Shown here: one piece after another, positions 1 through 9,136 of the stretch
How the letters are laid out: each line of letters begins with the position of its first letter
Position numbering within the stretch: the stretch's first letter is position 1
IMG/VR virus record: IMGVR_UViG_3300025114_001676
Coordinates: 1 to 22,177 of that record
Direction: 5' to 3' (one strand)
DNA: 22,177 nucleotides
DNA from: a virus
Notes under the pieces: model-generated
The model's input: only the letters and a program-made list of their open reading frames with translations
Databases searched by the model: none
Told to the model about the DNA's origin: nothing
Program-made: the position numbers and the translations under genes

Positions 1-228
1 ATCTAATACATAATCAACCGATATCAGTTTGTCATAAAATAAAGTAACACCTTCTGCTACCTTATCTTTGTATGTTCCTGATGTTTGTAATAAATTATAA
101 AACCCGCCATACCAAGTATTGATTGCTACTGTAAGTTGGACTTGAATCCATAGAGAGGCTACTAACAGCGCACCGCCGCCGTATGCCCATAAGGCCCACT
201 TCTTACTTCTATAAAATGCTTTGATCAT
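1..228 (-). CDS. SbmA/BacA/YddA-like inner-membrane transporter, N-terminal part only (runs off the window)
   Basis: Not in the ORF track. Manual translation from ATG at 228, which overlaps the upstream TGA as ATGA: MIKAFYRSKKWALWAYGGGALLVASLWIQVQLTVAINTWYGGFYNLLQ... open to base 1. A hydrophobic helix followed by VAINxWYGGFYxLLQ resembles the VxLNxWxxxFYxALQ motif of the SbmA/YddA transmembrane domain. Confidence 0.7.
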   Translation of the reverse strand, partial: MIKAFYRSKKWALWAYGGGALLVASLWIQVQLTVAINTWYGGFYNLLQTSGTYKDKVAEGVTLFYDKLISVDYVLD

Positions 229-1466
229 CCGAATAAACCCTCAAGTGTGGCTCGGCGTTTATGTCGGAACAAATCAAACTCCTTATTCTTACCAAAGGCC
301 CAGCAATTTTCTATATAAACCTTATTCATAAACTCTATAAGGTCTTCCTTGGTCTCAAACTTATTCTTACCTTGTGGCCGCTGCATTATTCTCATACCTA
401 TTTGACCTATCCAATGGGGCCTCAGGGAATCCACCAGCTCATCACCAGACCGATACCTCTTGCCTTTTATTTTGGGGTCCATAATATTAGTGATTAGAAA
501 ACCATTATCACTCAAAGTATTGAAACTATTTATCGCTACAGGCAGATAAAACTCATCGCGCCAAATGCTGTATTCATTATATTTACTCCAACTCTGGTCT
601 TCCTCAAAATCTCCACCCTCATTATATCTCTCTGTGGAAAAATATGGTGGTGATGTAAAAGCACAATCTACATCCCTAATATCATCCCAAGGCAAATCTT
701 CAGCGCCACACCTATATATCTGCACTGTTTTGCCGGGAGACATTTTATCCAACTCCTGTATCATTTGATGGTATACCTCAAAAGTGTTAGGATTCGGATC
801 ACAACCAATATAGTGTGTTGCATCTGAGGCATAAAAACCAGTAAGTCTATCACCCCAACCCATAGAAGTATCAAGCACAGTTTTAGCACCAGTCATATTA
901 TAGACCGTCTTTGCTACAATCGGCTTGAATTGTGTGGCGATATATGTGCCTAAGCGTAATACTTCCATCACACTTTTCGGACTCAAGTCCTCTGTGCTAT
1001 TTACTCCACGCCACAAGCCACCAATAGAGGCCCATATTTTCTTGGCATCACCTTCTTCCCAACATTGTGCCGGGGCCATATGTGAATAAGAACCACACTT
1101 CAACCTCAAATGGTTCATAAAATAATCAGAGCAGGTGTTGTATGTTGATGGTGTTTCTATTAGACCAAGTCCGTGTTCCTTGAAGTTGTATTTGTAATCA
1201 TCATACTTTTCCATCACTTCATTTTCTATCGCCTCTACTGGAACCAAAAAGTTGGTGTAATCCACAGCCTTCAGCTTTTGGAAGTTTGATACCATTTTAT
1301 CATATGGTATTTCCCTAAAAGGAAACGGTGGCCGTTCCTGGGCCACATATTCCGAAATCGTTTTACGGCATTCTTCTTTACCATAGGTCTCCGTGATGTA
1401 GCGAAACTCACCTTTATTCAAGTAAAAGTTGTGCTCGCCCAAATAACTATATAATTCTTTATTCAT
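225..1466 (-). CDS. SAM-dependent amino-methyltransferase (m4C/m6A type, SPPY), probably acting on DNA
   Basis: Motif I-like VLDTSMGWGDR, then YIGCDPN, then catalytic motif IV FTSPPY. Long N-terminal region precedes the methyltransferase core. Start overlaps the gp43 stop. Confidence 0.8.
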   Translation of the reverse strand: MNKELYSYLGEHNFYLNKGEFRYITETYGKEECRKTISEYVAQERPPFPFREIPYDKMVSNFQKLKAVDYTNFLVPVEAIENEVMEKYDDYKYNFKEHGLGLIETPSTYNTCSDYFMNHLRLKCGSYSHMAPAQCWEEGDAKKIWASIGGLWRGVNSTEDLSPKSVMEVLRLGTYIATQFKPIVAKTVYNMTGAKTVLDTSMGWGDRLTGFYASDATHYIGCDPNPNTFEVYHQMIQELDKMSPGKTVQIYRCGAEDLPWDDIRDVDCAFTSPPYFSTERYNEGGDFEEDQSWSKYNEYSIWRDEFYLPVAINSFNTLSDNGFLITNIMDPKIKGKRYRSGDELVDSLRPHWIGQIGMRIMQRPQGKNKFETKEDLIEFMNKVYIENCWAFGKNKEFDLFRHKRRATLEGLFG

Positions 1467-3955
1467 CCAAATAACGCCTCTAATGTCCTACTTGTGCCAA
1501 AACTTCTATCTATCTCCCAACCTACCTGAGTTACAATAAACTGTAAAGGATCTACAAAAGATTTTTCAAACTGTAAATCCATATCTACTACATCATGCAG
1601 TCTAAACTCCTCAGGCAACTCACCCAAAAAAGAAATCACATTAGCTTGCAAAACATTCGGCATCTTCAAGTTTAGATATTTGATCTTATCGCCGTCCCGG
1701 ATCAGCTGATACTTATTAGTCAGTTTATGTTTCTTCAAAAGATGGTTGTAAATCAAAGCACCCTTGATGTGCATTGGTGTTCCTTTCTTATAAATGTTTG
1801 AGGCATCACCCCACTTCTTTATGCCATTGACTCCCCGTGGGAATGCTATTTCTTCAACCGGAGTAACGAGAAATTCTTTCCTAAAAGCCTGAATAAAAGT
1901 ATTGACCGCTGAAGCATCTTCATTCACTATCACCTTCAACACTTCCTTAATCTTTGTCCTACACGGTCCTGGTGTTGAGGACTTCACTGCCTCAATACCC
2001 ATTATTTTCAGTTGGGGTTCTTCATATCTCACACCCTCACTATCATGCACATTTAGGATGTATCGTTTCTTGGCAGTCCAGATACCTTTGTCAGCAATAA
2101 CTTCTCTTGCCATCTCCATCTTCTGTGCATAAGCATTTACATACTCAGCCAATTCCTCATAACACTTGGTGATATAAGGCTCCATCTTCTCTGATGCCAC
2201 CTTGTCTAAAAAGTCAATCGGGTTTTTCGGTTCAACTTTCTTTACTAGCTCATCAAACTTCACATAGATGGAATCAGTATCAGAAGCGACCACATAATCC
2301 TCACCTTCTGTCTGTAAAATTTTATTCAAGTATTCATTCACCTTATTTTCAATCCATCTAATAGACAACTGACCTGATGTTGTTATGGCAGTAGCCAACC
2401 TTTCATCATAATAACGGAAGTATTGATTGCCGATAGCCCCATAACAACTATTCAATGCTATCTTTCTTGCCATCTGAATGTTGTGATACTTGGATATCTC
2501 CTTCAGATACTTTTTATCTTTGGTGTTTTCATATCGTTGTCGGGCCTCTAATGAATACTTTTTGAATTTCACACGGTCCTCATACATTTTCTCCATCAAC
2601 TCTGGGAGAAAGCCACTCTTATCGGTTCTAAAACAAGCGGCATTAGGAGTTACGGTTAGTTTCAACTCTTTCAGAAAATCAGTTTCTACTTCCTTAGTCA
2701 AAAGTTTATCTACTGAAATACCCCTTGGGAATCTTTCCGAAATCATAGTTTCTGGAGAAATATTATACTCCATAATAAGATGGGGATAAAGAGAATTGAG
2801 GTCAAACGATACTATCCAGTTATGCTGTCCTGTCTGTGGGTCCTTTACATAAGCCCCTTCATACCTAGACCCTTTACTCTCTGATATTTTTGGCGGCACC
2901 GCTATCTTTTTTGTTTTTAGATAATTGAAAATAATAACATCCCACATTCTAACTTGTGAGAATACATCAATATAATTTACCTTCGCCTCATATGCCATAG
3001 TGATACACATTTCAAGCAACTTCATCTTATCTTCTAAAGCATCTACCAGTTCCACATCCTTGATATTATAATCAACAAACGATTGATAATCTTTTGTATA
3101 CCACTCCTTGAATGTATCATAAGGATTCTTGTCCTTCTTTACACCCAACTCAATACTTGCTATGTAATCTAAAGCAAAGGACTCTTGGTTCTTATATGTA
3201 AATTTCATATAGATGTCCATATAATCCAGATTAGAAACACCCCAAATATTATACTTGGTGAATTCACGACCATAAGATGTCACCTTCTCCTCTGATACAA
3301 CATTCCACGGAGATAATAGGTTTGTCTTTTTAGGACCGAATAGTTTGGTGATACGATTACACAGATAAGGAATATCAAAGAAGTTTATATTCCAACCAGT
3401 TATAACATCTGGCTTGACTTGTGAGAAAAACTCCACAAATTGCTCGAGTAATTCCCTTTCATCCAGACAACGGACATACTCCACATCATCCCTGTCTGTT
3501 TTGAATTCATCTATGCCCCACACCAAAATCTTCTTTGTGTTTTGGTTCTTCACCGTAATGGCTAGGACTTCTTCTTCTGCTTCTTTGGGCTCTGGAAAAC
3601 CATTCTCACTAGCGACCTCAATATCAATAGTAAGAATAAGAATCTTCTCCTTATCCCAATTCACCAACCCCTCATATGTATCAGAAATCCAGGTGTATGG
3701 ATATCTTTCAAAACCATACACGAAACCTGGCAAATCTTTATACTGATTGATGAAATCTCTGGCCTCGGAAATGGAGCCAAAAGTTATCGGCTCCACAGAC
3801 CGACCCTGCAGAGTTTTATATTTTGATTTCTTTTTTGTGGGCCGGAATAATGTAGGTTTATAATCCAACCGCTCCTGCACACGCTTCCCATCCTCAATTT
3901 TGCGGATGAGAAATGTATTCCCGCGTTGAATTATTGACGTATAAAACGATTCCAT
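1463..3955 (-). CDS. gp43: Family B DNA polymerase (T4 gp43-like)
   Basis: ExoI DIEV, ExoII GWNINFFDIPY, ExoIII YNIKDV, region II SFDLNSLYP, region III KIALNSCYG, region I ASDTDS, KKRY. Start moved from 3964 to the ATG at 3955 because the first ATG overlaps the promoter -10 box. Confidence 0.98.
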   Translation of the reverse strand: MESFYTSIIQRGNTFLIRKIEDGKRVQERLDYKPTLFRPTKKKSKYKTLQGRSVEPITFGSISEARDFINQYKDLPGFVYGFERYPYTWISDTYEGLVNWDKEKILILTIDIEVASENGFPEPKEAEEEVLAITVKNQNTKKILVWGIDEFKTDRDDVEYVRCLDERELLEQFVEFFSQVKPDVITGWNINFFDIPYLCNRITKLFGPKKTNLLSPWNVVSEEKVTSYGREFTKYNIWGVSNLDYMDIYMKFTYKNQESFALDYIASIELGVKKDKNPYDTFKEWYTKDYQSFVDYNIKDVELVDALEDKMKLLEMCITMAYEAKVNYIDVFSQVRMWDVIIFNYLKTKKIAVPPKISESKGSRYEGAYVKDPQTGQHNWIVSFDLNSLYPHLIMEYNISPETMISERFPRGISVDKLLTKEVETDFLKELKLTVTPNAACFRTDKSGFLPELMEKMYEDRVKFKKYSLEARQRYENTKDKKYLKEISKYHNIQMARKIALNSCYGAIGNQYFRYYDERLATAITTSGQLSIRWIENKVNEYLNKILQTEGEDYVVASDTDSIYVKFDELVKKVEPKNPIDFLDKVASEKMEPYITKCYEELAEYVNAYAQKMEMAREVIADKGIWTAKKRYILNVHDSEGVRYEEPQLKIMGIEAVKSSTPGPCRTKIKEVLKVIVNEDASAVNTFIQAFRKEFLVTPVEEIAFPRGVNGIKKWGDASNIYKKGTPMHIKGALIYNHLLKKHKLTNKYQLIRDGDKIKYLNLKMPNVLQANVISFLGELPEEFRLHDVVDMDLQFEKSFVDPLQFIVTQVGWEIDRSFGTSRTLEALFG

Positions 3956-3962
3956 ATTATTC

Positions 3963-3991
3963 ATTATACACTATGGTGCATAAGAAGTCAA
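3963..3991 (-). promoter_or_regulatory. sigma70-type promoter for gp43
   Basis: TTGACT (3991-3986), 17 nt spacer, TATAAT (3968-3963); ATG follows after 7 nt. Confidence 0.85.
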
Positions 3992-4320: not shown

Positions 4321-4728
4321 TCAATCTACTCTTTTCTTTGAACCTATATTATATTTTGTTTCCAACACCCAATCTTCTTTATCTCTATATGACAAAACCT
4401 TTATCTGTGATAGTGGGGCTTTAGGTTCAGCTACCCCAACAATTTCTATCAATTCCCAATCACCTAACAAACTCGCTATTGTATTCCTTCTCTCTACATC
4501 ATTCAGTGTTATGTTTGTTGGCTTACCATCAAGTGCAAATAATTCCTTAAAATGTACTATGAAATATCTACCTTGTTTGTGTAATATGTGGCACGACTGA
4601 TATAAAATTTTATCCTTTCTACTTGCAACACCGATACGAGATAAAGTTTCTCTGACTTTTAGAAAATCATCTGGCTCGTTTAACTTTACCTCCAGCATCA
4701 TTTCGGGAGTCCACTCCACTTCTTCCAT
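4321..4728 (-). CDS. regA: Translational repressor RegA
   Basis: EVKLNEPDDFLKVRETLSRIGVAS, LYQSCHILHKQGRYFIVHFKELFALDG; upstream GAGGTG ribosome-binding site. Confidence 0.97.
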   Translation of the reverse strand: MEEVEWTPEMMLEVKLNEPDDFLKVRETLSRIGVASRKDKILYQSCHILHKQGRYFIVHFKELFALDGKPTNITLNDVERRNTIASLLGDWELIEIVGVAEPKAPLSQIKVLSYRDKEDWVLETKYNIGSKKRVD

Positions 4729-5122
4729 GGTTTACACCTCTAATCAATTTTCTTTTTATAGTTTTAACTTGGTCATCGGTCAAAACACGGAGGGCCTGTT
4801 TAGCCTTTTCATTGCTATAGCCATAATATTCTTTGATATACTCTATGTCTTTCACCTTTGAAGCACGAATCCACTTCGCAAAGCGTTTCCGCTTACTCAA
4901 ACTATTTATGAAAAAGTCATTTTGCAGACGATTGTCCAGATAATGCATACGGTTCATTTCATTCACATAGAATATGGCATCTCCGTGGGCTGATAAACAC
5001 TTATTGATGATGTAAGCTGGGTACTTTTTCTCCCAAAACTCATCCTCATCTTCCATAAGGTTCTTCTTCCCAAAGTTTATTTCATTTAGGTATTGTGATA
5101 ATTGATAATCTTTTTTACTCAT
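4667..5122 (-). CDS. gp62: Clamp loader small subunit (gp62)
   Basis: YPAYIINKCLS, NEMN, KRKRFAKW, IKEYYGYSNEKAKQAL. Start reassigned to ATG 5122 (MSKKDY), coupled to the upstream stop at 5115-5117. Confidence 0.93.
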   Translation of the reverse strand: MSKKDYQLSQYLNEINFGKKNLMEDEDEFWEKKYPAYIINKCLSAHGDAIFYVNEMNRMHYLDNRLQNDFFINSLSKRKRFAKWIRASKVKDIEYIKEYYGYSNEKAKQALRVLTDDQVKTIKRKLIRGVNHGRSGVDSRNDAGGKVKRAR

Positions 5123-5684
5123 GCCAATTCTGCCATAACCAATTAGTGTGTTGCTCTTCATTATAGATACGATAATCATCCCAATTACCGTAAGTCCTCA
5201 TATGAGTATACACTGAATTTGTGTTGGCGTCAAGGATTTTTTCCTCCCACCAATCAGGAGACTTCACAGTGCAATGTGCATTTTCTCCATTGGGTAATAT
5301 TGCTTGGGCCGGCTGTGTTGATATGCCTAGAAATACAAACCTCTCAGCTCGGTCAAACATAAGTTGTAAAGTTTCTAGGCATTCTTCTTCAGGTATATGT
5401 TCCATCACATCAATAGAAAATACACCATCATAAGTTTTATCAGGCAACTTATCATGCTCTGGAATTGCCGGGTCATATAAATCTGGTCTTAAACCATCCC
5501 ACCTTTGATGGATATTATATATAGAATATTGTGTGCCCTTACCACAACCAAAATCTAATAGACTTCGGCACTTTGTTTCTCTTATCAGACCCACCAGCTG
5601 GTCTATATGAACCAACATGATACTACCTGCACCATAATCAGGTACAATTTTGTGGTGCTCTTTATATAATTCTACGTTTTTCAT
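5115..5684 (-). CDS. Class I SAM-dependent methyltransferase (small-molecule/glycan type)
   Basis: Motif I LLDFGCGKG; DGVFSIDVMEHIPE; NGENAHCTVKSPDWW. No DPPY/SPPY motif. Confidence 0.85.
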   Translation of the reverse strand: MKNVELYKEHHKIVPDYGAGSIMLVHIDQLVGLIRETKCRSLLDFGCGKGTQYSIYNIHQRWDGLRPDLYDPAIPEHDKLPDKTYDGVFSIDVMEHIPEEECLETLQLMFDRAERFVFLGISTQPAQAILPNGENAHCTVKSPDWWEEKILDANTNSVYTHMRTYGNWDDYRIYNEEQHTNWLWQNWHE

Positions 5685-6376
5685 ATGATAGAATTACTCA
5701 CTAAGAAATTATCAAGCGTTGGAAGATTGAATAAAGAGTTGTCATACACTTCTTTACTGAGCTCACATCCAAGATATTTTCTATTCATTTTTTTAGCTAC
5801 TTGTAATGAAATACCAGATGCTGCAAACGGGTCTAAAACTTTATCACCTTCTTTAGTTAGTCTATCTATTATCATATGGCAAAATGGTTCTGGCCACATA
5901 AATGAATTCAAAGCACCTTTTATGTTGCCTATCCTTTCTGTATTATATATCAAAATATTTTTCAAGAAATCTCCTGAGCGTTTAATTGTACCATTTCTGG
6001 TAAATATCACACATTGTTGATAATTGAAATAATACATATCTCTTTTATCTACTGGTTCATTTCTCACCACAATTTTGTAATCTTTCATTTTCATACCACA
6101 TTCCGAAAGCGCATTGCTGTATGTGATATGATTGGCTAAAATTTCACCATTGATTTTGCGGTCTGTCTGTGATACCACCACAAATCCATCGTCTTTCACC
6201 ATACGAGCAAATTCTTTCATCACATTAGTCTGAAACTCTTTATAACTTACCGTATCTTTCTCAAAGTGTGTCTGTGAAATATCTGGTAGACTACTAAAGA
6301 CTAAATCGACCGACTTGTCTTCCACTTCTTTCATTAAATCGGCAGCATCACACAGTAAAAATTGATTCCATTCCAT
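5681..6376 (-). CDS. Beta-class N4/N6 DNA methyltransferase-fold protein with non-canonical catalytic motif (SLPD)
   Basis: N-terminal SVDLVFSSLPD sits where D/SPPY is expected. C-terminal motif I VLDPFAASG...RKYLGCEL. AGGAGG lies 7 nt before ATG 6376. Confidence 0.8.
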   Translation of the reverse strand: MEWNQFLLCDAADLMKEVEDKSVDLVFSSLPDISQTHFEKDTVSYKEFQTNVMKEFARMVKDDGFVVVSQTDRKINGEILANHITYSNALSECGMKMKDYKIVVRNEPVDKRDMYYFNYQQCVIFTRNGTIKRSGDFLKNILIYNTERIGNIKGALNSFMWPEPFCHMIIDRLTKEGDKVLDPFAASGISLQVAKKMNRKYLGCELSKEVYDNSLFNLPTLDNFLVSNSII

Positions 6377-7199
6377 CAAAAAACCTCCTACCTACACACC
6401 AGAATAAAATCTTCTGGTCTAAATTTATATTATTTAACATCCACTTATGAGCCTTGGCTTCATATATATCATCTAGTGCTATATCTCCTACCCATTGTAT
6501 TTCTGATTTAGAATACGGTGAATTGGTAGATATTAATTCATACTCATATTTAACCTTTTCTTCCCAAACCAATTCTTCTCTATACAAATAACTATCTACT
6601 AATTTACGTCTATCTGGACCTACATGAACTCCTATCACTCGTTTGACGATTTTATTATGTTCATGCAAACCCTTTAGAATATTTGCAAATTGTATTCCAC
6701 TTCCCATAGGGACTACTAAAACATCCAACTCATCAGGTATGTTCTTCACCTGTTGAGTATTTACAAACATCAACTCTGGATGACTATAAATGTGTTTGCT
6801 AAAATCTGGATTGTAATAACCATTCTCTTGTTGTATCTCTCTTATTCTAGCTGTAATAGCAGTTTTCATGCCATGACCAGCTACAATTCTTATCTCTGCT
6901 CCAAAATGCTTACATAATCGCATCATCGGCAGCTTATCTAAATTTTCAGGTTTAGTTCCGCCTACAGCAATAATACAAGGAACATCATATTCTTTTGCCA
7001 CTCTACTAAAAATTGTAGATGATGGAGAATGTACTGAAGTTGATGCTATAACACCAGGTCCGAGATTACATTGCTCAAAAATCTCTATCGTTTGTCTGAC
7101 TTTACCACCATTAACATCGCCATACGGTGCATAAAGGTCATCACGCTTATAATAAATTCCGTTATGCTCTTCGACTGGCGTAAGGTTATAAGTTTTCAT
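6348..7199 (-). CDS. PLP-dependent fold-type II enzyme (ACC deaminase/D-cysteine desulfhydrase-like)
   Basis: LTPVE...YYKRDDL...NGGKVRQ retains the PLP lysine (compare KRDD...GNKxR). Phosphate-binding loop VVPMGSG; LDDIYEAKA; ILFW. Confidence 0.85.
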   Translation of the reverse strand: MKTYNLTPVEEHNGIYYKRDDLYAPYGDVNGGKVRQTIEIFEQCNLGPGVIASTSVHSPSSTIFSRVAKEYDVPCIIAVGGTKPENLDKLPMMRLCKHFGAEIRIVAGHGMKTAITARIREIQQENGYYNPDFSKHIYSHPELMFVNTQQVKNIPDELDVLVVPMGSGIQFANILKGLHEHNKIVKRVIGVHVGPDRRKLVDSYLYREELVWEEKVKYEYELISTNSPYSKSEIQWVGDIALDDIYEAKAHKWMLNNINLDQKILFWCVGRRFFDGMESIFTV

Positions 7200-7211
7200 T
7201 TATCCACTTGT

Positions 7212-8216
7212 TCATTTCTTAAACACAAAAATTGGTTCGTATTTGACTTTGCCCTGCTGTGAGGACAACTGGAGATTCCACCTGGAAATATAATTGAATC
7301 CTGTTTCCATACCCAAACGCACAGTATCTTCCTCAAATGTTTTTATTCGTTTTGTGTTGGCTACATTCATCAACATCCAACCATCCTCTTTCAGACCATA
7401 ATAACAATTCTCCATAGTCTTTCTCAGGAAGCCTTCTAACCATTCATCTGTTGTTGGATACTTCTTATATGATTGTGTATCTTCATCAGAGTATTTCTCC
7501 CAATCAAAATATGGTGGTGAAGTGAAGCATAGATTTACACTGTTTCTATCTGGTCTAAACTCCTCACTACCCATCTTGTGCAATTCTATTGTGCGGTTCT
7601 TATCTCCCCAATCATCCCTTATCTGTTCCAATCCCACATAAGTTTCCGTGCAGGGGTCAGTGCCAATATAATTCACACCAGCAGCAATAGAACCCAACAA
7701 ACGCCCACCATAACCACAACTCATATCCCAAGTTGTGCCGGCATCTGTATTGAATAGGGGTGAAGCCTTCTCTAAAAACTTATCATAGATTAGAGCAGCT
7801 GCTGTCGGTCTGAAATTGGAAACAACCTGTGTTCCAGAATACCGACTGAGGACTTTCCTCTTATCGGATTCTGTTACTCGGTGATATTCCTGACGATCCC
7901 AAAACACACCTTCTAAAAGTTTTCGGATAGCTCGTTTCAGATGCACTTCATCTTCCCATATCTCTACAGGAGTTTTCATAGTGCCACACTTGATGCCCCA
8001 ATGATGGGACATATAACTCCAAGCCAAAGCATAACCGTGGCCGCTGGTGCCTACTGCTTTATCTTTAGGCTTATATAATGTAGACCTATCAAATGCTATG
8101 AGTTTAGCGAATTCTCTTTTGCGCCAAGCATAGTTAGTGGGAAAATCAGGGAAGCCCTTTTCTTTCCACTCCACATATGCCTGGTCTACTAATTCTTCAC
8201 TTACTTGAATCGGCAT
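7212..8216 (-). CDS. SAM-dependent amino-methyltransferase (SPPY), same family as 225..1466
   Basis: WDMSCGYGGRL, YIGTDP, FTSPPYFDWEKY. ATG 8216 preferred; TTG 8240 is an alternative start. Confidence 0.82.
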   Translation of the reverse strand: MPIQVSEELVDQAYVEWKEKGFPDFPTNYAWRKREFAKLIAFDRSTLYKPKDKAVGTSGHGYALAWSYMSHHWGIKCGTMKTPVEIWEDEVHLKRAIRKLLEGVFWDRQEYHRVTESDKRKVLSRYSGTQVVSNFRPTAAALIYDKFLEKASPLFNTDAGTTWDMSCGYGGRLLGSIAAGVNYIGTDPCTETYVGLEQIRDDWGDKNRTIELHKMGSEEFRPDRNSVNLCFTSPPYFDWEKYSDEDTQSYKKYPTTDEWLEGFLRKTMENCYYGLKEDGWMLMNVANTKRIKTFEEDTVRLGMETGFNYISRWNLQLSSQQGKVKYEPIFVFKK

Positions 8217-9136
8217 TGAGTCATTATCTCTGTCAAACAAGCGAGTAAATTTATTTCAGGATCAGCAACAAAGGCTGCCTTCATCTGATATTCTCCGATA
8301 ATAATAACAGCAGACGGTATAGTGGCTGGTTCAAGATATGTGTAAAGGCTATCGTAAATCTTGCGGAAGATTTTAACAGGGTCGTTGTCAATGTTATCAA
8401 CAACCCATTTACGGACCTTTGTAAACTCCTTCTCCTTTAGGTGGAGGGCCAACTCTTTCATATTGACTTCTGAAAGATTGACTAGGATGCCGGAGTCTAT
8501 CTTGCCTGACACACTATACCGCTGCAACTCATTCAACACTCGCCGGTTATCCGGGAAGTGTTTCATAATCATTTCTGCTACAACTTTCTTTTCATACTCT
8601 ACATTCTGCTCTTTAAGTATATCACAACAACGCTCAAGTAATTCAGTCGCCAACTTCTGCCGGCCACCATTAACCTTAAACTCTATAACCGAACAACGAG
8701 AATGTAACGGTTCAATAATTCTGTTTTTGAAATTGCAGGTAAAAATGAACCTACAATTATTATGAAACTCCTCAATGAACCCACGCAAAGCAGGTTGTGT
8801 AGATGAGGGGTTTAGATAATCTGCTTCATCTAATATTACTACCTTCTGTCCACCTTGTAGTGATACTGTAGAAGCAAAGTTTTTAATTTTTGTCCGTAGA
8901 ATATCAATACCGGATTCCTCCGATCCGTTGATAATCATATAGTCACGGTTGAGCTCCTCACAAAGAGCTCTAGCTACTGTTGTCTTACCAACACCGGCAC
9001 CACCGGACAAAAGTAAATTAGGAAGTTCATTATTCTTAACAAACTCCTCAAATGTTTTCTTTATTGATTTAGATAGAATACAATCAGCAATCTTCTTCGG
9101 CCGATATGTTTCCACCCACAAAATGTTTTCTGCCAT
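8201..9136 (-). CDS. gp44: Clamp loader large subunit, AAA+ ATPase (gp44)
   Basis: [16 protein letters not shown], Walker A GGAGVGKTT, Walker B ILDEAD, SRC motif, FPDNRR. Confidence 0.97.
   Translation of the reverse strand: MAENILWVETYRPKKIADCILSKSIKKTFEEFVKNNELPNLLLSGGAGVGKTTVARALCEELNRDYMIINGSEESGIDILRTKIKNFASTVSLQGGQKVVILDEADYLNPSSTQPALRGFIEEFHNNCRFIFTCNFKNRIIEPLHSRCSVIEFKVNGGRQKLATELLERCCDILKEQNVEYEKKVVAEMIMKHFPDNRRVLNELQRYSVSGKIDSGILVNLSEVNMKELALHLKEKEFTKVRKWVVDNIDNDPVKIFRKIYDSLYTYLEPATIPSAVIIIGEYQMKAAFVADPEINLLACLTEIMTQCRFK

Follow-up and report, generated by a model that had tools for sequence, protein, structure and literature searches.

The 22,177-nucleotide stretch of record IMGVR_UViG_3300025114_001676 considered here (the window) comes from an uncultured marine T4-like phage. 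In it the clamp-loader genes gp44 and gp62 are split by four minus-strand genes that fill positions 5115–8216: mtS334, PLP283, mtB231, and mtI189. PLP283, a pyridoxal 5'-phosphate (PLP)-dependent enzyme, is by sequence and profile comparison a full-length homologue of the gp226/gp52 family of decarboxylases, which act on amino acids borne on DNA, and its gene overlaps that of mtB231, a protein with the fold of a DNA amino-methyltransferase. Across related phages PLP and mtB co-evolve and form the conserved core of the slot, with an SPPY-type methyltransferase usually within 3 kb. Phage DNA hypermodification and this PLP decarboxylase family were already known; the pairing of the PLP enzyme with methyltransferase folds points to a base decoration that has not been described.

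Among cultured phages, PLP283 is closest to the PLP enzymes of ViI-like Ackermannviridae, the match in ViI being orf00226, or gp226; the other cultured-phage matches are to a few mycobacteriophages and others. A profile made from an alignment of 20 PLP283 homologues (A1) aligns with ViI gp226 over its full length and 271 columns (hhalign probability 99.6, E 1e-24) and with M6 gp52 over 250 columns (probability 97.5, E 7e-12). Lys33, which is invariant in the 20 homologues, lies over Lys92 of gp226 and Lys36 of gp52, the residues named by Lee et al. as the predicted PLP-binding lysines (PMC8989533). In vitro, the purified gp226 and gp52 proteins remove CO2 from O-serinyl- and C-alpha-glycinyl-thymidine within polymeric DNA, and decarboxylases of this type need a DNA-attached substrate with a free alpha-amine and a carboxylate (PMC8989533). 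The original prediction had tied the PLP enzyme to the thymidine hypermodification of ViI and M6, and the full-length homology with its aligned lysine bears this out. It had also considered that PLP283 might be a plain 1-aminocyclopropane-1-carboxylate (ACC) deaminase or a cysteine desulfhydrase. This is unlikely, as the metabolic matches are far weaker than the match to the gp226 family: the best are a cysteine synthase in the PDB (E 1e-4) and the NCBIfam model ACC_deam_rel (TIGR01275), at 18.8 bits against a cut-off of 289, and assignment as an ACC deaminase or D-cysteine desulfhydrase was rejected on that score.

Relatives were fetched with PLP283, with mtS334, and with family profiles for PLP and mtB, and their open reading frames were labeled by hidden Markov models built from our own alignments. 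mtB adjoins PLP in 29 of the 48 distinct PLP loci that could be assessed, and 24 of these 29 also have, within 3 kb, a gene of the type of mtS334 or of its paralogue mt413. An mtS-type gene without an adjacent mtB is found in 6/48; one of these six loci, L148, carries gp43, an mt413-like gene, and PLP as overlapping genes. In the retrieval that started from mtB, 36 of the 50 distinct loci have PLP as a direct neighbor and 2 others have it one gene away. The pair occurs in both gene orders and at no fewer than three genome sites: between gp44 and gp62; after gp46, as OXY-PLP-mtB-mtS or as mtB-PLP-mtS followed by a glutamine synthetase (GS)-like gene; and after gp43 and mt413. Spearman coefficients of pairwise identity over 26 loci are 0.85 for PLP/mtB, 0.47 for PLP/mtS, and 0.59 for mtB/mtS, the last two figures being depressed because the mtS set mixes two paralogues. 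Within the window, PLP283 and mtB231 have the lowest G+C content (0.33–0.35; 0.41 for mtS334).

The co-occurrence of the four families that the original prediction had proposed to look for thus holds for PLP and mtB (36/50 adjacent, at least three sites) and fails for mtS334 and mtI189. A strict four-gene operon is ruled out by the neighborhoods: mtS334 can stand alone, homologues of mtI189 are confined, across about 215 related loci, to three other contig groups (groups named L004, L007, L043/L205, and L206), mtB is found without PLP, and 19/48 PLP loci have no adjacent mtB. Independent occurrence in relatives had been named beforehand as the outcome that would count against a single obligatory cassette, and for the four-gene unit it is what we find, so that part of the proposal has to be given up.

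The systems of ViI and M6 rely on a 5-hydroxymethyldeoxyuridine (5-hmdU) DNA kinase and an amino acid:DNA transferase (AADT) to install the amino acid (PMC8989533). Within the window, which is the part of this phage's own genome covered by the searches, no ADDT (PF18724), HMUD2 (PF18747), or thymidylate-synthase-family gene was found. This agrees with the original prediction, which had seen no 5hmU kinase or amino acid:DNA transferase there, and extends to larger sequences: five related fragments of 48–110 kb, 26–59% complete, contain no ADDT or thymidylate synthase, and HMUD2 is absent from the four in which it was checked. The roughly 215 fetched loci likewise hold no ADDT, HMUD2, or thymidylate-synthase-family gene, save for the control loci of ViI and Vibrio Ackermannviridae. 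As positive controls, the same searches are positive for both ADDT and HMUD2 in ViI and recover ADDT from a Vibrio phage of the Ackermannviridae.

A second case comes from the complete genome of the mycobacteriophage Vincenzo. Its gene 2 is a gp226-like PLP gene (E 1.6e-23 against A1) and overlaps gene 1, the C-terminal half of which is an mtS334-like methyltransferase domain with the motif SCPPY; a search of the complete genome for ADDT found none. Taken together, the Vincenzo pair and the marine module suggest that two unrelated phage lineages couple a gp226-type decarboxylase to an amino-methyltransferase fold and not to AADT. Among the PLP283 matches and the mtB231 matches inspected, no cultured phage carries the PLP and mtB module itself.

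Some uncultured phages show other arrangements around the PLP gene. At L140:6955-8825 and L143:6934-8846, a radical S-adenosylmethionine (SAM) gene followed by a gp226-like PLP gene sits beside terminase, a layout of the M6 type. In L089 and L097 (PLP at about 8000-8900) and in L100 (PLP at 6651-7550), the gp226-like gene is followed by one for a trypsin-like protease, and no methyltransferase-like gene, oxygenase, or AADT lies within 8 kb of PLP.

The partner of PLP283, mtB231, has a permuted Rossmann fold in which motif IV comes before motif I, as in the PF01555 class. The AlphaFold2 (AF2) model has a predicted local distance difference test score (pLDDT) of 84.7, with the tail (residues 221–231) below 50, and its top Foldseek matches are the rotifer N4C methyltransferase 8s9m, CcrM, MboIIA, and PvuII (E 1e-15 to 1e-12, template modeling score about 0.7); a phmmer search of the PDB likewise matches beta-class DNA amino-methyltransferases. 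The catalytic motif is another matter. Motif IV of mtB231 is S-L-P-D in place of (D/S)PP(Y/F), and all 24 aligned homologues have S-x-P-D where (D/N/S)PP(Y/F/W) is expected; the closest cluster representatives at 50% identity are mostly S-x-P-D, a few with His or Gly at the last position and none with an aromatic residue. Ser29, Pro31, Asp32, Gln70, Asp72, and Arg73 are invariant in the 24 homologues, and the QTDR(K) motif and DPF are invariant in the family, while the glycine loop varies (DPFAASG, DPFAGSG, DPFAGVAPV). In canonical beta-class enzymes, the aromatic residue of motif IV stacks on the flipped base. A constant aspartate in its place, kept under clear purifying selection, indicates an altered reaction or substrate and not a dead gene. 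Binding of a side-chain ammonium would suit S-x-P-D at least as well as alkylation of a base amine by mtB.

The mtB family is small, with 29 representatives at E <=1e-30 among 1.84 billion. No member was found in 185,579 species genomes, where the cellular homologues of mtB231 are generic beta-class methyltransferases of at most 38% identity, and the cultured-phage matches that we inspected carry canonical DPPY or SPPY and never the S-x-P-D of the family. As sampled by these searches, the family is phage-only, so far from uncultured phages. A wider metagenomic set of beta-class methyltransferase-like proteins has the pattern SPPD...TDRK...DPFxGSGTT (representatives P0158-P0195); the contigs that hold these more distant SPPD-type proteins are mostly too short for their contexts to be informative. 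One SVPD member (P0131 context) lies in a replication module of a non-T4 phage, beside ribonucleotide reductase and two N6_N4_Mtase-like genes (375 and 388 residues), without PLP.

The S-x-P-D motif and the missing installers bear on whether PLP283 could still work by the canonical thymidine route. The phage would then have 5-hmdU- or 5-hydroxymethyldeoxycytidine (5-hmdC)-containing DNA and would encode the kinase and AADT outside the window; PLP283 would decarboxylate the adduct, mtB231 would N-methylate the side-chain amine or target the PLP enzyme to DNA, and mtS334 and mtI189 would be unrelated. Known members of the gp226/gp52 family all work downstream of AADT (PMC8989533), the window spans only 22 kb and the related contigs are 26–59% complete, S-x-P-D is easier to square with amine binding than with base stacking, and related PLP genes do adjoin a radical SAM gene, as in M6. 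Against this, five related fragments of up to 110 kb lack ADDT and ThyA-family genes (and HMUD2 in the four checked), although the ViI controls are positive for ADDT and HMUD2, and the complete Vincenzo genome has a PLP/methyltransferase-like pair without ADDT. Moreover, the known systems cluster PLP with kinase and AADT, whereas in the present phages it is grouped, at several independent sites, with methyltransferase-fold genes. We regard the canonical route as unlikely, but as one that deserves to be kept in view.

mtS334 differs from mtB231 in that motif I precedes motif IV (FTSPPY), and it has a helical N-terminal domain of about 150 residues. The best PDB matches to its AF2 model (pLDDT 84) are Trm11 tRNA m2G methyltransferases and generic class I enzymes, over the C-terminal 200 residues only, and no DNA N4C or N6A methyltransferase is among the top structural matches. 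In sequence, mtS334 shares 39.5% identity with a standalone gene of a Vibrio phage that bears the annotation N4-cytosine methylase (InterPro IPR017985). The FTSPPY motif is shared with mt413, is invariant in 22 homologues, and fits the PROSITE signature of N4-cytosine methyltransferases, [LIVMF]-T-S-P-P-[FY]. We predict that mtS334 is an N4-cytosine-type DNA methyltransferase, and it is possibly the installer of a side chain. In most related contigs gp44 is followed by a homologue of mtS334 of 65–77% identity, in many cases with no PLP or mtB, and in a profile comparison the mtS and mtB families match in their motif IV regions (probability 95). Distant relatives of mtI189 in Caulobacter jumbo phages are annotated as FkbM-type methyltransferases; mtI189 itself is an accessory gene of sporadic occurrence that may encode a tailoring enzyme.

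The independence of mtS334 and mtI189 raises the question of whether any hypermodification is made at all. The slot could simply gather orphan m4C/m6A methyltransferases for anti-restriction, with PLP283 an auxiliary metabolic enzyme that works on free metabolites, akin to cysteine synthase, ACC deaminase, or threonine dehydratase, and mtB231 degenerate or inactive. mtS334 and mtI189 each turn up independently of the rest, the window also contains a Dam-type methyltransferase and mt413, the gp44–gp62 slot is hypervariable in relatives, and PLP283 does have weak matches to cysteine synthase and ACC-deaminase-related models. Yet its likeness to the DNA-acting decarboxylases is many orders of magnitude above that to any metabolic enzyme, the adjacency and co-evolution of PLP and mtB are not expected of unrelated genes, and the invariant SxPD and QTDR residues of mtB argue for a selected active site. 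An absence of hypermodification is therefore improbable in our estimate.

How might a gp226-type decarboxylase obtain its substrate here? With no AADT route in sight and with SAM-binding folds as constant partners, the 3-amino-3-carboxypropyl (acp) group of SAM is the simplest source of a side chain. There is a precedent in microcin C, where MccD, which has a methyltransferase fold, transfers acp and the N-terminal PLP domain of MccE decarboxylates it to give the aminopropylated product, although the reverse order, through decarboxylated SAM (dcSAM), is also possible (PMC10491745). We propose that a methyltransferase-fold enzyme takes acp, and not methyl, from SAM and places it on newly replicated DNA; the S-x-P-D protein mtB231, the SPPY protein mtS334 or mt413, or both kinds at different steps could do so, and the acceptor would be a base nitrogen, most likely the exocyclic amine of cytosine or adenine. 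PLP283 would then join the free alpha-amine of acp in a Schiff base and remove CO2, which would leave an aminopropyl group with a positive charge. The product may be N-methylated by mtI189, and 2-oxoglutarate (2OG) oxygenases and a GS-like ligase of relatives may decorate it further. Finally, the genes would be co-transcribed with those of the replisome, and at least mt413 would ride the gp45 clamp. As a whole, addition of acp to DNA by a methyltransferase-fold enzyme followed by decarboxylation by PLP283 is a scheme that we hold tentatively, at somewhat under an even chance.

The original prediction had likewise placed a SAM-derived group before a PLP step. That outline is supported by the decarboxylase family of PLP283, the PLP/mtB linkage, the missing installers, and the MccD/MccE precedent. 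Its particulars, namely DNA as the substrate, acp from SAM as the group, which protein installs it, the target base, and the tailoring roles, are ones that we infer. The tight linkage of mtB to PLP favors mtB as the installer. The Vincenzo and L148 pairs and the retained SPPY favor the mtS type in that role, with mtB then acting on the side-chain amine.

Several observations weigh against the acp scheme. The module is known here from genes alone, and all related contigs are incomplete (26–59%), which leaves room for a 5-hmdU/AADT route elsewhere in the genome. Of the 48 PLP loci, 13 have neither methyltransferase-like gene nearby, and in 2 of these 13 a radical SAM gene lies directly upstream of PLP, as in M6. 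Twelve of the 50 distinct mtB-like genes are without PLP, such that the coupling is strong and not obligatory. mtS334 looks like an ordinary standalone methyltransferase: about 12 loci have it by itself between gp44 and gp62, and cultured Vibrio and Bacteroides phages carry it as a standalone gene. The loss of the base-stacking aromatic residue argues against alkylation of a base amine by mtB. MccD (PDB 5FCD) is absent from the PDB sequence searches with mtB231, mtS334, and mtI189 at E up to 1-10. Finally, a glycosyltransferase-like gene and an acyltransferase gene of relatives may serve a separate, sugar-based modification.

The order of the two steps could also be reversed. The window encodes a homologue of AdoMet_dc (SpeD), and either this enzyme (17484-17906) or PLP283 could decarboxylate SAM, after which a methyltransferase-fold protein would transfer aminopropyl to DNA in the manner of spermidine synthase. 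Aminopropyl transferases share the class I methyltransferase fold, and the corresponding path, route b of microcin C, is still possible for MccD/MccE (PMC10491745). Nevertheless, the relatives gp226 and gp52 act on DNA-borne amino acids and not on SAM (PMC8989533), and speD lies 9 kb from the four genes. Phage SpeD homologues are, in addition, common auxiliary genes, some of them ornithine or arginine decarboxylases (PMC10407285). We consider a dcSAM route very improbable. The scheme in which acp is transferred first has a further link to replication, through mt413.

In T4, the C-terminal sequence SLDFLFG of gp43 is the gp45-binding peptide (PMC6212786). The gp43 of the present phage ends in TLEALFG and mt413 in TLEGLFG, and the gp43 tail and that of the mt413-type protein change together in four further contig groups: TLDGFF and TLEEFF in L148, NLLDFL and TLEDFL in L010/L084, SLEDFFN and TLEDFL in L080, and TLEALFG and TLEGLFGD in L081 (gp43 first in each case). 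Because the tail of mt413 matches that of the polymerase and co-varies with it, and because the T4 counterpart binds gp45, mt413 is probably a client of the gp45 clamp that acts on newly made DNA. The clear tail is found only on mt413, outside the slot; mtS334, PLP283, and mtI189 have no clamp-type tail. mtB231 has TLDNFL seven residues from its end, in a flexible C-terminal tail (PTLDNFLVSNSII) that is disordered in the model, with pLDDT below 50. Some mtB homologues have similar tails (TLDEFMT, LLDKFG) and others have none. The window also encodes a 156-residue protein at 16953-17423 (-) with no Pfam or PHROG match, which starts ...YLAGPI... and ends ...ITGLFGDYVQ; the LFG near its C terminus resembles the polymerase tail.

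In relatives, the content of the gp44–gp62 slot is hypervariable. A 2OG oxygenase similar to Asp/Arg-beta-hydroxylase is directly upstream of PLP in many loci. The slot, or the surroundings of the PLP–mtB pair, may also hold a glycosyltransferase-like gene (PHROG 1962, in which the motif FHGxPKP is conserved) with a formyltransferase or hexapeptide acetyltransferase gene after it, and a glutamine-synthetase-like ligase (amidoligase) and other 2OG oxygenases are found in the slot or beside the pair. Examples of genes beside mtB are at L043:3741-7690, L046:1838-7041, and L031:8468-10844, with a 2OG oxygenase, glycosyltransferase-like protein, formyl- and acetyltransferases, and GS-like ligase. 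The oxygenase and the GS-like ligase could act on a DNA-borne side chain, and acetylation of a DNA-borne amine is known from PaMx11 (PMC8989533). A variable DNA-modification island is the best description of the slot, and the window contains a minimal form of it.

All genes of the window are on the minus strand, in the order gp45, a pilin-like gene, gp44, the four inserts, gp62, regA, a small gene, gp43, and a methyltransferase-like gene (Table 1). The original prediction had described the clamp-loader genes as split by four genes and had given the junctions between them, and both descriptions match the sequence: gp44 and mtS334 overlap by 16 nt, mtS334 and PLP283 are 12 nt apart, PLP283 and mtB231 overlap by 29 nt, mtB231 and mtI189 meet at ATGA, and the mtI189/gp62 junction reads ATGAGTAA. 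The mt413 gene overlaps the end of gp43 (225-1466 and 1463-3964). Each of the four inserts has many conserved homologues in related contigs, so they are real genes and not chance open reading frames. On the minus strand of the inserted region, the only notable promoter-like site is a sigma70-like one (10/12, 5233-5205); otherwise the scan gave no convincing promoter or terminator, and the counts of both are not above those in shuffled sequence. This lack of internal signals is consistent with, though not proof of, co-transcription of the four genes with the replisome genes.

Table 1. Features of the window discussed in the text.
Feature	Coordinates	Strand	Evidence
gp44, clamp-loader large subunit, upstream border of slot	8201..9136	-	PHROG 168 E 1e-123; AAA and Gp44_lid domains
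mtS334, 334-residue amino-methyltransferase	7212..8216	-	ATG at 8216; FTSPPY; PF01555 just below cut-off; PHROG match
PLP283, PLP-dependent fold-type II enzyme	6348..7199	-	PF00291 above cut-off; PHROG 3650 E 6.5e-35; Lys33 in GGKVRQ
mtB231, beta-class N6/N4 methyltransferase fold	5681..6376	-	PF01555 E 2e-18; SSLPD replaces motif IV; motif I DPFAASG
mtI189, small class I SAM methyltransferase	5115..5684	-	LLDFGCGKG; Methyltransf_23 E 4e-5, below cut-off; PHROG methyltransferase 24759 E 1e-18
gp62, clamp-loader small subunit, downstream border of slot	4667..5122	-	PF16790; PHROG 225 E 3e-41; likely start ATG at 5122
gp43, DNA polymerase	1463..3964	-	DNA_pol_B domains; C terminus TLEALFG
mt413, mtS334 paralogue directly after gp43	225..1466	-	FTSPPY; BLASTP against mtS334 E 5e-22, 28% identity; C terminus TLEGLFG
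AdoMetDC (SpeD)-like pyruvoyl enzyme	17484..17906	-	PF02675 E 2.7e-17

Two further genes of the window are a D12-class (Dam-type) N6-adenine methyltransferase at 12848-13672 (-) (PF02086, E 5e-21), which brings the methyltransferase-fold genes in the 22 kb to five, and the type IV pilin-like gene at 9256-9798 (-) (PHROG pilin matches), between gp45 and gp44.

To our knowledge, every phage pathway known to attach amino acids or amines to DNA begins with 5-hydroxymethylpyrimidines and relies on a kinase together with an amino acid:DNA transferase. In our literature searches we found nothing on acp or aminopropyl modification of DNA or on a pair of methyltransferase-like and PLP enzymes in phages, and DNA is not among the acceptors listed in a 2023 review of the non-methyl chemistry of SAM (PMC10491745). 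What the present analysis adds is that a proven decarboxylase family recurs, without kinase or AADT and with methyltransferase-fold partners instead, in dozens of uncultured T4-like phages and one mycobacteriophage. If its side chain is derived from SAM, the product would represent a DNA modification of a new chemical class, which might sit on cytosine, adenine, or guanine rather than thymine, and its formation would be a new reaction for the DNA amino-methyltransferase fold. There would be consequences for restriction and CRISPR evasion, for marine virome sequencing, and for enzymatic DNA labeling. The fullest statement of the idea is that this is the first DNA hypermodification built directly from SAM, by a phage-specific installer of the SxPD/SPPY amino-methyltransferase fold that is in part clamp-tethered, with gp226-type decarboxylation to an aminopropyl base and interchangeable tailoring to give a family of cationic or acylated bases, hitherto unknown, in T4-like phages that are abundant in marine and fresh waters and, through the analogous pair, in some mycobacteriophages. 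In all its parts together, that statement is doubtful, and we offer it as a conjecture.

Overall, the module resembles several known systems, each in one respect. With the beta-class PF01555 enzymes (M.PvuII, M.RsrI, M.MboIIA, CcrM, and rotifer N4CMT), mtB231 shares the permuted fold, the motif order, and DPF, whereas the mtB family has S-x-P-D, an additional invariant QTDRK, and an altered motif I (DPFAASG, DPFAGVAPV). The clamp peptide of T4 gp43, SLDFLFG, is paralleled by TLEGLFG in mt413 and by TLEALFG in the phage's own gp43. In wybutosine synthesis (TYW2–TYW5), a methyltransferase-fold enzyme places acp from SAM on a base, and class I methyltransferases and a 2OG oxygenase go on to methylate, acylate, and hydroxylate the chain. 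These steps resemble the variable tailoring genes of the gp44–gp62 slot, but their substrate is tRNA and they include no PLP decarboxylation.

MccD and MccE share with the PLP–mtB pair the proposed two-step logic and the adjacency of the two genes. The acceptor there is the phosphoramidate of a peptide-nucleotide and not DNA, and the decarboxylase domain of MccE presumably belongs to another PLP fold type than PLP283; the analogy is thus one of mechanism and not of membership. The closest comparison remains that with ViI gp226 and M6 gp52, which have in common with PLP283 the fold-type II core and the motifs YKRDD, NGxKxRQ, QVxNIPD, GPxR, YExK, and LFWxVG. Unlike theirs, the PLP283 gene is without a 5-hmdU DNA kinase, AADT, radical SAM partner, or hydroxymethylase in the sequence searched, and it overlaps a methyltransferase-fold gene inside a T4-type replisome operon. 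With such different partners, the substrate of PLP283 is probably not a 5-hydroxymethylpyrimidine adduct.

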